Notes under the pieces: model-generated
The model's database searches: none
Told to the model about the DNA's origin: nothing
What the model saw: the letters and a program-made list of their open reading frames with translations, nothing else
NCBI RefSeq assembly: GCF_001677475.2
Contig: NZ_CP015229.1
Strand: one strand, 5' to 3'
Source of the DNA: Escherichia coli
GTDB lineage: Bacteria; Pseudomonadota; Gammaproteobacteria; Enterobacterales; Enterobacteriaceae
DNA: 64,000 nt
Shown: piece by piece, positions 3,568 through 4,455 of the stretch
Numbering within the stretch: position 1 is the stretch's first letter
Layout: every line of letters begins with the position of its first letter
Translations under genes and position numbers: made by a program

Positions 3568-4455
3568 GTGGTACGGCGTTTAACTTCTCCGCGGCTCGAA
3601 TTTGAAGCTGCGGCAATTTATGAATATCCCGAACATTTACGTTCATTCCTTAATGACTTACCCACCCGACCAGGGGTGTATCTGTTTCATGGCGAAAGTG
3701 ACACCATGCCGCTCTATATCGGCAAAAGCGTTAATATCCGCAGTCGGGTGCTTTCTCATTTACGCACCCCTGATGAAGCCGCCATGCTACGGCAATCCCG
3801 GCGAATTAGCTGGATTTGCACCGCAGGCGAAATCGGCGCTCTGCTCCTTGAAGCGCGATTAATCAAAGAACAACAGCCACTGTTTAATAAACGCTTGCGC
3901 CGCAATCGCCAGCTCTGCGCCCTGCAATTAAATGAAAAGCGCGTCGATGTGGTGTATGCCAAAGAGGTGGATTTTTCACGAGCCCCCAACCTGTTTGGCC
4001 TGTTTGCCAATAGGCGCGCAGCTTTGCAAGCATTGCAGAGCATCGCTGATGAACAAAAACTTTGTTATGGCCTGTTGGGACTGGAACCGTTAAGCCGCGG
4101 GCGTGCTTGTTTTCGTTCTGCATTAAAACGTTGCGCTGGGGCGTGTTGCGGTAAAGAGAGCCATGAGGAACATGCGCTACGCTTGCGCCAGTCTCTGGAG
4201 CGTTTGCGGGTGGTGTGTTGGCCTTGGCAAGGGGCGGTGGCGCTGAAAGAACAGCACCCGGAAATGACTCAATATCATATTATTCAAAACTGGCTGTGGC
4301 TGGGGGCGGTTAATTCGCTGGAAGAAGCGACAACGTTAATTCGGGCACCCGCCGGGTTTGATCACGACGGTTATAAAATTCTTTGTAAGCCGCTGCTTTC
4401 CGGTAACTATGAAATTACTGAACTTGATCCGGTGAATAACCAGCAAGCCAGTTGA
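3568..4455 (+). CDS. cho: UvrC-homologue excision nuclease Cho (GIY-YIG); GTG start
   Basis: ORF track 295 aa; GTG at 3568; translation recognised as Cho (YdjQ). Confidence 0.9.

Follow-up and report, generated by a model that had tools for sequence, protein, structure and literature searches.

Convergent cho and ves genes of Escherichia coli overlap by 41 bp at their 3′ ends

Convergent gene pairs and the cho/ves junction

Convergent overlaps between coding sequences have been counted and modelled as a class since the 2000s, and that between cho and ves is already known, being both annotated and catalogued. In E. coli, 58 (PMC2174442) or 75 (PMC4161906) such overlaps have been counted. Among the convergent overlaps of the former study, codon phase (123:132) was the commonest (46%), a model of stop-codon mutation fitted the phase frequencies, and a Rho-independent terminator was predicted for only 20% of the genes involved (PMC2174442, 2007); confinement of a terminator to the partner CDS, which cho/ves shares with these 58 cases, was already discussed there. 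At the transcript level, 276 of 370 convergent operons had 3′ ends that were complementary, overlapping by 286 nt on average (Conway et al., PMC4161252). Convergent excludons of type (b) (Sesto et al. 2013; PMC7154746; PMC12288877) likewise consist of convergent genes without a terminator between them, with detectable duplexes, as at cho/ves; the exclusion of one gene by the other is the defining feature of an excludon, and the likeness of cho/ves lies in architecture and RNA overlap. Unlike that class, cho and ves are weakly expressed and the arrangement is lost in several related genera. The bidirectional, collision-assisted terminators of Ju et al. (2019), as presented by Wang et al. (bioRxiv 10.1101/2022.10.23.513370), resemble the junction in joining convergent genes, a stem-loop on both strands and a non-canonical form; compared with the terminators described in that account, the cho/ves stem-loop lies inside both CDSs, is weak and unconserved, and has no 3′ ends mapped to it.

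The window (the whole 64,000-nt stretch of E. coli DNA analysed, from contig NZ_CP015229.1) carries the chromosomal gene set nadE, cho, ves, spy and astE around the overlap. The features defining the junction are:

3568–4455, + strand: cho CDS, excinuclease Cho (295 aa); GTG start, TGA stop at 4453–4455 (ORF, NCBIfam, RefSeq)
4415–4990, − strand: ves CDS, HutD-family protein Ves (191 aa); ATG at 4990, TAA at 4417–4415 (ORF, Pfam, NCBIfam, RefSeq)
4415–4455, both strands: convergent cho/ves overlap, 41 bp from stop to stop (sequence, junction display, per-site table)

Cho matches the NCBIfam equivalog NF007833 (578 bits, residues 1–287) and Ves the equivalog NF008488 (427 bits, residues 1–191), with Pfam HutD found on residues 8–175 of Ves. 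Neither Ves nor Cho itself was represented among the PDB structures returned by sequence searches; the matches were HutD homologues and the UvrC GIY-YIG domain, which are uninformative on the tails. Induction of ves by low temperature and other stresses has been described; the product name in RefSeq is simply environmental stress-induced protein.

The 41-bp overlap of cho (+) and ves (−) claimed in the earlier note was confirmed from the ORFs and the sequence, and the RefSeq annotation is identical. Both edges of the overlap are stop codons, so its length is independent of start-codon choice (the longest ves ORF extends to 5053; the annotated 191-aa form begins at ATG 4990). Codon positions 1/2/3 of cho are paired with 1/3/2 of ves, written (123:132), the phase that is commonest among convergent overlaps below ~50 bp. 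Opposite the cho stop lie the ves codons ATC AAC (Ile-Asn), and opposite the ves stop the cho codons ATT ACT (Ile-Thr).

Many long overlaps in annotated genomes are artefactual, mostly co-directional ones (PMC2478687), which raises the alternative that this one stems from faulty annotation or sequencing (a misplaced stop, a frameshift or a spurious gene). Nothing pointing that way was found at cho/ves itself, and 41 bp lies below the 60-bp range in which artefacts dominate. RefSeq/PGAP annotates the same overlap in WP4-S18-ESBL-07, HCP4S3_I4 and EPEC E2348/69, and 5423 of the 5426 complete E. coli genomes carry the 2-kb region at ≥95% identity, which excludes a sequencing error or frameshift. 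As in the convergent overlapping pairs described previously (PMC2174442; PMC2478687; PMC4161906), both partners are real opposite-strand genes, judged by equivalog matches over their full conserved length, the HutD domain of Ves and third-position variation in both flanks (coding selection on both frames up to the junction), and each stop lies inside the other ORF, a frameshift not being the cause. The 41-bp arrangement is retained in 12 Citrobacter and four other Escherichia loci at 20% protein divergence. Protein lengths agree among orthologues, as Pallejà et al. require of a real overlap, in all Escherichia and in the 12 Citrobacter loci (Cho, 295 aa; Ves, 191 aa); in other genera the C-termini of Cho and Ves are 3–9 aa shorter, so the overlap is real but clade-specific. 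The earlier note had allowed that a different true stop or start might make the overlap an annotation artefact; the stops are fixed by the sequence and RefSeq concurs, so a wrong stop or start does not apply here. The artefact explanation is already effectively refuted, and its probability is close to nil.

Overlaps of this size call for no special cause. The chance expectation was taken from 46 annotated CDSs around the locus, each read inwards from its 3′ end on the opposite strand in phase (123:132). Stops make up 4.8% of the codons in these frames, a median of 17 codons (quartiles 9–28) passes before the first of them, and 61% of the frames stay open for at least 13 codons. Two genes with no spacer left can be expected to overlap by some tens of bases, and the overlap of cho and ves is not beyond chance expectation. 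The annotation of 150 kb from a single E. coli genome contains 18 convergent CDS pairs, whose stop-to-stop distances are 167, 147, 127, 116, 92, 64, 62, 55, 50, 41, 39, 39, 8, 7, 2, 0, −35 and −41 bp. In six of these 18 pairs the stops are less than 10 bp apart, two of the six overlapping (by 35–41 bp), and one third of the convergent pairs in the 150 kb is without room for an intergenic terminator. The second overlapping pair, nudG/ynjH (21916–21950; 35 bp), lies 17 kb away in the same window; it involves different genes, is of similar size and is likewise part of the published excludome.

Conserved cores, tails and related genomes

The conserved cores of the two proteins do not overlap. Among 39 Cho orthologues, L286 (4423–4425) is the last invariant column and there is no consensus beyond ...YEIxEL; the consensus of 28 Ves orthologues ends ...LLFSEIxWLPGH at residue 185 (4436–4438). 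The cores, ending at 4425 and 4436, are 10 bp apart. The overlap is made up of two tails, nine residues of Cho and six of Ves, each read across the conserved end of the partner gene:

4426–4452, + strand: poorly conserved C-terminal tail of Cho, residues 287–295 (DPVNNQQAS) (orthologue alignment, end of the equivalog match, AlphaFold)
4418–4435, − strand: C-terminal extension of Ves, residues 186–191 (SPDQVQ), present in Escherichia and Citrobacter only

Identity in the Cho tail is 0.48, compared with 0.80 for the preceding 20 residues, and residues 290–295 have pLDDT <50 in an AlphaFold model with a mean of 75. Identity in the Ves tail is 0.85, compared with 0.86 upstream; an AlphaFold model of Ves (28 orthologues) had a mean pLDDT of 47 and was set aside. 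Diversity was compared across 17 unique Escherichia and Citrobacter sequences with the 41-bp state. Upstream of the overlap it is 0.52 at cho third positions and 0.15 and 0.10 at the other two, and downstream it is 0.44 at ves third positions and 0.18 and 0.05 at the others. Inside the overlap, ves third positions (the second positions of cho) show 0.30 and cho third positions 0.09, so that the overlap evolves as ves coding sequence. On this pattern of substitution the ves frame within the overlap appears to be under purifying selection, with the Cho tail a tolerated passenger. Part of the constraint on Ves stems from the conserved Ile-Thr-Glu-Leu codons of cho (4415–4425), where both frames are nearly invariant. 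Unlike the typical convergent overlap, that of cho/ves exceeds the modal 4 bp and its constraint is asymmetric (Ves frame dominant, Cho tail relaxed), but nothing essential differs, and the locus would serve well in teaching to illustrate spacer loss and stop movement, one frame being selected and the other a passenger.

For comparison, 80 related loci (one genome per species) were fetched with the Cho protein, and stops were located with truncated queries so that alignments end before the stops. The 60 adjacent loci, comprising 58 related genomes and two E. coli records, show 12 values of stop-to-stop distance, from a 45-bp overlap to a 48-bp gap, with all three codon phases present:

45-bp overlap: 2 loci
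41-bp overlap: 18 loci (plus the window itself), all Escherichia and most Citrobacter
32-bp overlap: 5 loci
23-bp overlap: 15 loci, mainly Enterobacter and Lelliottia
15-bp overlap: 3 loci
10-bp overlap: 1 locus
7-bp overlap: 6 loci
4-bp overlap: 5 loci, Kosakonia
gaps of 3, 28, 46, 46 and 48 bp: 5 loci

At 20 loci no ves was found within 4 kb of cho. The gene is absent beside cho in Salmonella, Klebsiella, Raoultella and Trabulsiella; in the first two of these genera the gene opposite cho is spy, at a distance of 74–87 bp that corresponds to the spy terminator hairpin. Loss of ves from Salmonella with a remnant left in the Cho tail was considered and dropped, the alignment being too ambiguous between loss and gain. 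The Cedecea group has an intervening 514-codon ORF, and in three loci cho and ves are separated by ~1.8 kb. Conservation of the overlap in other Enterobacteriaceae, a point raised in the earlier note, therefore holds in part: 41 bp is kept within the Escherichia/Citrobacter group listed above, but elsewhere the length varies, and in Salmonella and Klebsiella adjacency itself is absent. The common trait is very tight packing, and neither overlap length nor adjacency is universal.

The invariance of the 41 bp in all the Escherichia and most of the Citrobacter species sampled, together with the near-universal closeness of the genes when adjacent, could reflect selection for tight convergence and not drift.

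With a probability of roughly 0.7, the junction is best explained as an ordinary tail-to-tail overlap of coding sequences, left behind when two convergent genes lost nearly all of the spacer between them and their stop codons drifted. From cores that stop 10 bp apart, each frame would run across the antisense strand of its partner to the first in-frame stop, this read-on adding nine codons to Cho and six to Ves. In genera other than Escherichia and Citrobacter, Ves ends ...WLPGH (185 aa), and alignment places nine extra bases in these two genera, removing the older ves stop after ...WLPGH (23-bp to 41-bp state); that event would have fixed the overlap of the lineage at 41 bp.

Terminators and RNA structure

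The earlier note had stated that neither gene has room for a terminator outside the coding sequence of the other, and this is borne out. There is no intergenic space, and a consensus terminator scan of 3300–5300 found nothing at the junction (no + strand site from 3751 to 5158; on the − strand only 4810–4794, upstream inside ves), so any terminator must lie inside or beyond the partner gene. The structures identified around the junction are:

4411–4459, both strands: imperfect palindrome over the overlap (fold of the 57-nt segment 4407–4463)
4474–4502, + strand: 12-bp stem-loop, 19 nt after the cho stop and inside ves codons (fold; no U-tract; not terminator-like in the scan)
~5107–5183, both strands: bidirectional intrinsic terminator between spy and ves, with A-tract, long GC-rich hairpin and T-tract (scan, fold, Term-seq)

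The spy/ves terminator ends spy on the − strand and is the first terminator-like site for cho read-through on the + strand, ~700 nt past the cho stop. Its fold energy is −33.4 kcal/mol (z = −4.6), the scan match (5159–5173) covering only the 3′ half of the long hairpin, and Adams et al. report a strong spy terminator end at MG1655 1825060(−), equivalent to window position 5103 and 123 nt upstream of ves. No Rfam family was found in or near the overlap in a scan of 3000–5800, in which the sole match at gathering score was a REP-like sRNA (ES036) in the nadE-cho spacer. The stem-loop at 4474–4502 could stabilise the 3′ end of cho mRNA.

Stem-loop-dependent bidirectional termination is an established class, and the palindrome at 4411–4459 might be such a terminator embedded in two CDSs, giving short, fixed, overlapping 3′ ends with the assistance of collision. 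Both strands of 4407–4463 fold to a hairpin (−14.1 kcal/mol on +, −17.9 kcal/mol on −), with z = −2.9 to −3.3 against shuffled controls in E. coli. Some Citrobacter hairpins are stronger (−24 to −26 kcal/mol on the ves strand), and the four lineages with 28–48 bp gaps carry a strong GC-rich hairpin in the gap (61–70-nt spanning segments fold at −32 to −37 kcal/mol). Against this, RNAalifold on 16 sequences of the clade gave −3.09 kcal/mol and 0 compensatory pairs, i.e. no shared structure, and z-scores are scattered, from −3.7 to +0.3 within the 41-bp clade and mostly near 0 in the clades with 23-bp and 4–15-bp overlaps. Like the stem-loop at 4474–4502, the palindrome is without a U-tract, and it therefore fails the terminator scan; Term-seq lists no 3′ end there; translating ribosomes would melt a stem that lies inside both ORFs; and captured duplexes 100–400 nt beyond the stops point to read-through. 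Termination at the palindrome is accordingly rated very improbable. As an unconserved structure, the palindrome is regarded as incidental, and the overlap hairpin was rejected as a conserved element since the 16 sequences show neither shared structure nor covariation.

Downstream of both stops C exceeds G by 1.5–2.5 fold in 80-nt windows (C/G 32/18 at 61–140 nt past the cho stop and 33/18 at 161–240 nt past the ves stop), the antisense of coding DNA being C-rich in general. Read-on RNA of this composition is compatible with Rho loading but is also what the antisense strand of a coding sequence usually gives; the sole bicyclomycin-sensitive 3′ end reported lies in the 5′ part of cho, away from these windows.

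Counting against an ordinary overlap is the fold of the E. coli sequence, which is more stable than that of shuffled controls (z ~ −3).

Transcripts and the question of cho/ves coupling

Published transcript data and the cho control region add the following features:

3537–3552, + strand: CTG-N10-CAG motif CTGGATAGATAACCAG, of LexA-box form, 16 nt upstream of the cho start (pattern match)
3602, + strand: Term-seq 3′ end in cho, 35 nt into the ORF, bicyclomycin-sensitive (Adams et al. supplement, mapped by sequence)
4228–4248, both strands: RNase III-cut sense/antisense duplex in cho, 167–187 nt past the ves stop (PMC7373196 Table S3)
4557–4577, both strands: RNase III-cut sense/antisense duplex in ves, 102–122 nt past the cho stop (PMC7373196 Table S3)
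4844–4865, both strands: second RNase III-cut duplex in ves, up to 410 nt past the cho stop (PMC7373196 Table S3)

cho is among the LexA-regulated genes with a known SOS box (PMC6590174), and the motif at 3537–3552 is probably that box. The 3′ end at 3602 indicates premature Rho-dependent termination in cho; the Term-seq tables of Adams et al. give a further Rho-dependent region deeper inside the gene, and an independent method in EPEC placed a cho terminus 51 nt into the ORF. With mapped 3′ ends this premature in unstressed cells (35–51 nt into the ORF), little cho transcription seems to reach the overlap. The searchable Term-seq tables of Adams et al. contain no 3′ end in or near 4415–4455 and none antisense to cho or ves.

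That the two transcripts must be mutually antisense at their 3′ ends, as the earlier note had deduced, agrees with published data. cho-ves is one of 165 convergent excludons present in at least half of 58 MG1655 transcriptomes (ExcludonFinder, NAR 2025, PMC12288877 Table 1), and RNase III-cut duplexes occur in both genes (PMC7373196). The p19-captured cho/ves duplexes are perfect, at 1–11 reads per million (PMC7373196); 87% of genes give some duplex RNA by this measure, so those of cho and ves show only that antisense RNA exists.

The note had further proposed that this arrangement could couple expression of a DNA-repair nuclease and a temperature-regulated protein. In its fullest form, a functional convergent excludon, LexA de-repression would send cho transcription antisense through ves, lowering ves by collision and/or RNase III, and read-through from ves/spy would conversely lower cho, making the responses to DNA damage and to envelope or temperature stress mutually exclusive. 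The junction without a terminator, the place of cho-ves in the RNA-seq-derived MG1655 core excludome, the cut duplexes inside both genes and the tight convergence retained across the 60 adjacent loci are all in line with such a device, and excludon pairs as a class show higher synteny and less single-cell co-expression. Overlaps of this kind, in coding sequences and in transcript 3′ ends, are however routine in E. coli. Detection of both genes is nearly enough for a pair with overlapping CDSs to satisfy the ExcludonFinder criterion, and the source paper, which highlights relBE-ydfV, gives no opposing regulation for cho-ves (PMC12288877). Adjacency is also dispensable (Salmonella, Klebsiella, Raoultella and Trabulsiella do without ves, and Cedecea has an intervening gene), overlap length is unconserved, duplex levels are near the genome-wide background and the mapped 3′ ends of cho in unstressed cells are premature. 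A functional excludon is thus considered unlikely. Coupling of cho and ves expression, though possible, is unsupported, and the comparison across genera speaks against its being an essential feature of the locus.

The higher synteny and reduced single-cell co-expression reported for excludon-class pairs count against an ordinary overlap; the figure is one for the class, with none for cho-ves.

Under the ordinary overlap preferred here, a polymerase leaving either gene would, for want of a junction terminator, transcribe the partner in antisense. Termination might then be diffuse, brought about by Rho acting on the untranslated C-rich RNA, by a head-on collision of polymerases or, in the case of cho, by the spy terminator ~700 nt on, and the outcome would be low levels of complementary RNA cut by RNase III. 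Mutual interference between cho and ves in unstressed cells is probably weak, because cho is LexA-repressed and its mapped 3′ ends in such cells lie near its 5′ end.

A narrower proposal is that tight convergence is kept because SOS-induced cho transcription silences ves in cis, as an excludon under DNA-damage control, or because the embedded palindrome acts as a collision-dependent bidirectional terminator; either would be a decidedly long shot. Silencing of ves in cis by SOS-driven cho would, if true, add one more validated excludon and tie DNA-damage signalling to a functionally uncharacterised stress protein, a modest advance.

Beside cho-ves, the excludome list (PMC12288877) includes nudG-ynjH, ynjE-ynjF, yceK-msyB, clsC-opgC and murJ-flgN, which are tightly spaced pairs that were also found here by reading the annotation.

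Termination within cho and candidate LexA sites

Published Term-seq and bicyclomycin data place Rho-dependent premature termination inside the first 35-280 nt of cho, and in EPEC a comparable terminus lies 51 nt into the gene. Termination this early points to a limit on cho output that acts after initiation, in addition to control by LexA.

3602, + strand; MG1655 1823539 and 1823784: premature 3′ ends of cho, from the published Term-seq/bicyclomycin data
3418-3460, + strand: ES036 (CssrF) sRNA, Rfam match in the nadE-cho spacer (38.9 bits; gathering score 37.6)
3378-3414, - strand: naRNA4 (CssrE), weak Rfam match adjoining that to ES036

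The ES036 (CssrF) match in the spacer resembles a REP-type element. Across the whole window there are 32 copies of the LexA-box skeleton CTG-N10-CAG, versus 12.9 expected from dinucleotide shuffles, an excess that likely reflects the abundance of CTG and CAG codons rather than surplus LexA sites; of the 32 copies, only that at 3537-3552 sits immediately before cho, which is an SOS gene.

Hairpins beyond the cho stop

5107-5183: spy terminator (A-tract, long hairpin, T-tract; -33.4 kcal/mol, z = -4.6)
4522-4555 in L045 and ~4877-4925 in L052, L054 and L065 (related loci fetched with the Cho protein): palindrome in the cho-ves spacer

This architecture makes the spy terminator a textbook bidirectional intrinsic terminator, and in Salmonella and Klebsiella the cho stop is followed directly by the same hairpin. 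A few lineages have cho and ves without an overlap (Pseudescherichia vulneris, Escherichia sp. ESNIH1 and two others). In these, a spacer of 28-48 bp contains a near-perfect GC-rich palindrome that lacks clear U-tracts, segments of 61-70 nt across it having fold energies of -32 to -37 kcal/mol. This palindrome may be a small inserted element, either REP-like or terminator-like.

Atypical and doubtful cho-ves loci

In E. coli HCP4S3_I4 (NZ_CM149872.1; locus L002, 1-3000), cho is cut down to its final 300 bp, annotated as a partial pseudogene; ves is intact and the 41-bp cho-ves overlap is kept. Phage genes lie immediately upstream of the remnant, and the Com and Mom family genes among them identify this region as a Mu-like prophage.

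Two other related loci carry doubtful labels. Cho and Ves of L003, titled ‘Citrobacter sp. HRGM_Genome_0066’, are 97-99% identical to those of E. coli, while L062, a further contig from that MAG, resembles Citrobacter; in L043, titled ‘Chryseobacterium sp. 18061’, the C-terminal sequences of Cho and Ves are near-identical to those of a Citrobacter isolate (L079). On these similarities, both records are probably mis-binned or mislabelled.

A second convergent overlap

21543-21950, + strand: nudG CDS, convergent with ynjH
21916-22188, - strand: ynjH CDS, convergent with nudG

These coding sequences overlap by 35 bp (21916-21950), forming the second such pair in the window, and the E. coli excludome, a published MG1655 list of gene pairs with overlapping transcription (PMC12288877), includes nudG-ynjH as well as cho-ves.
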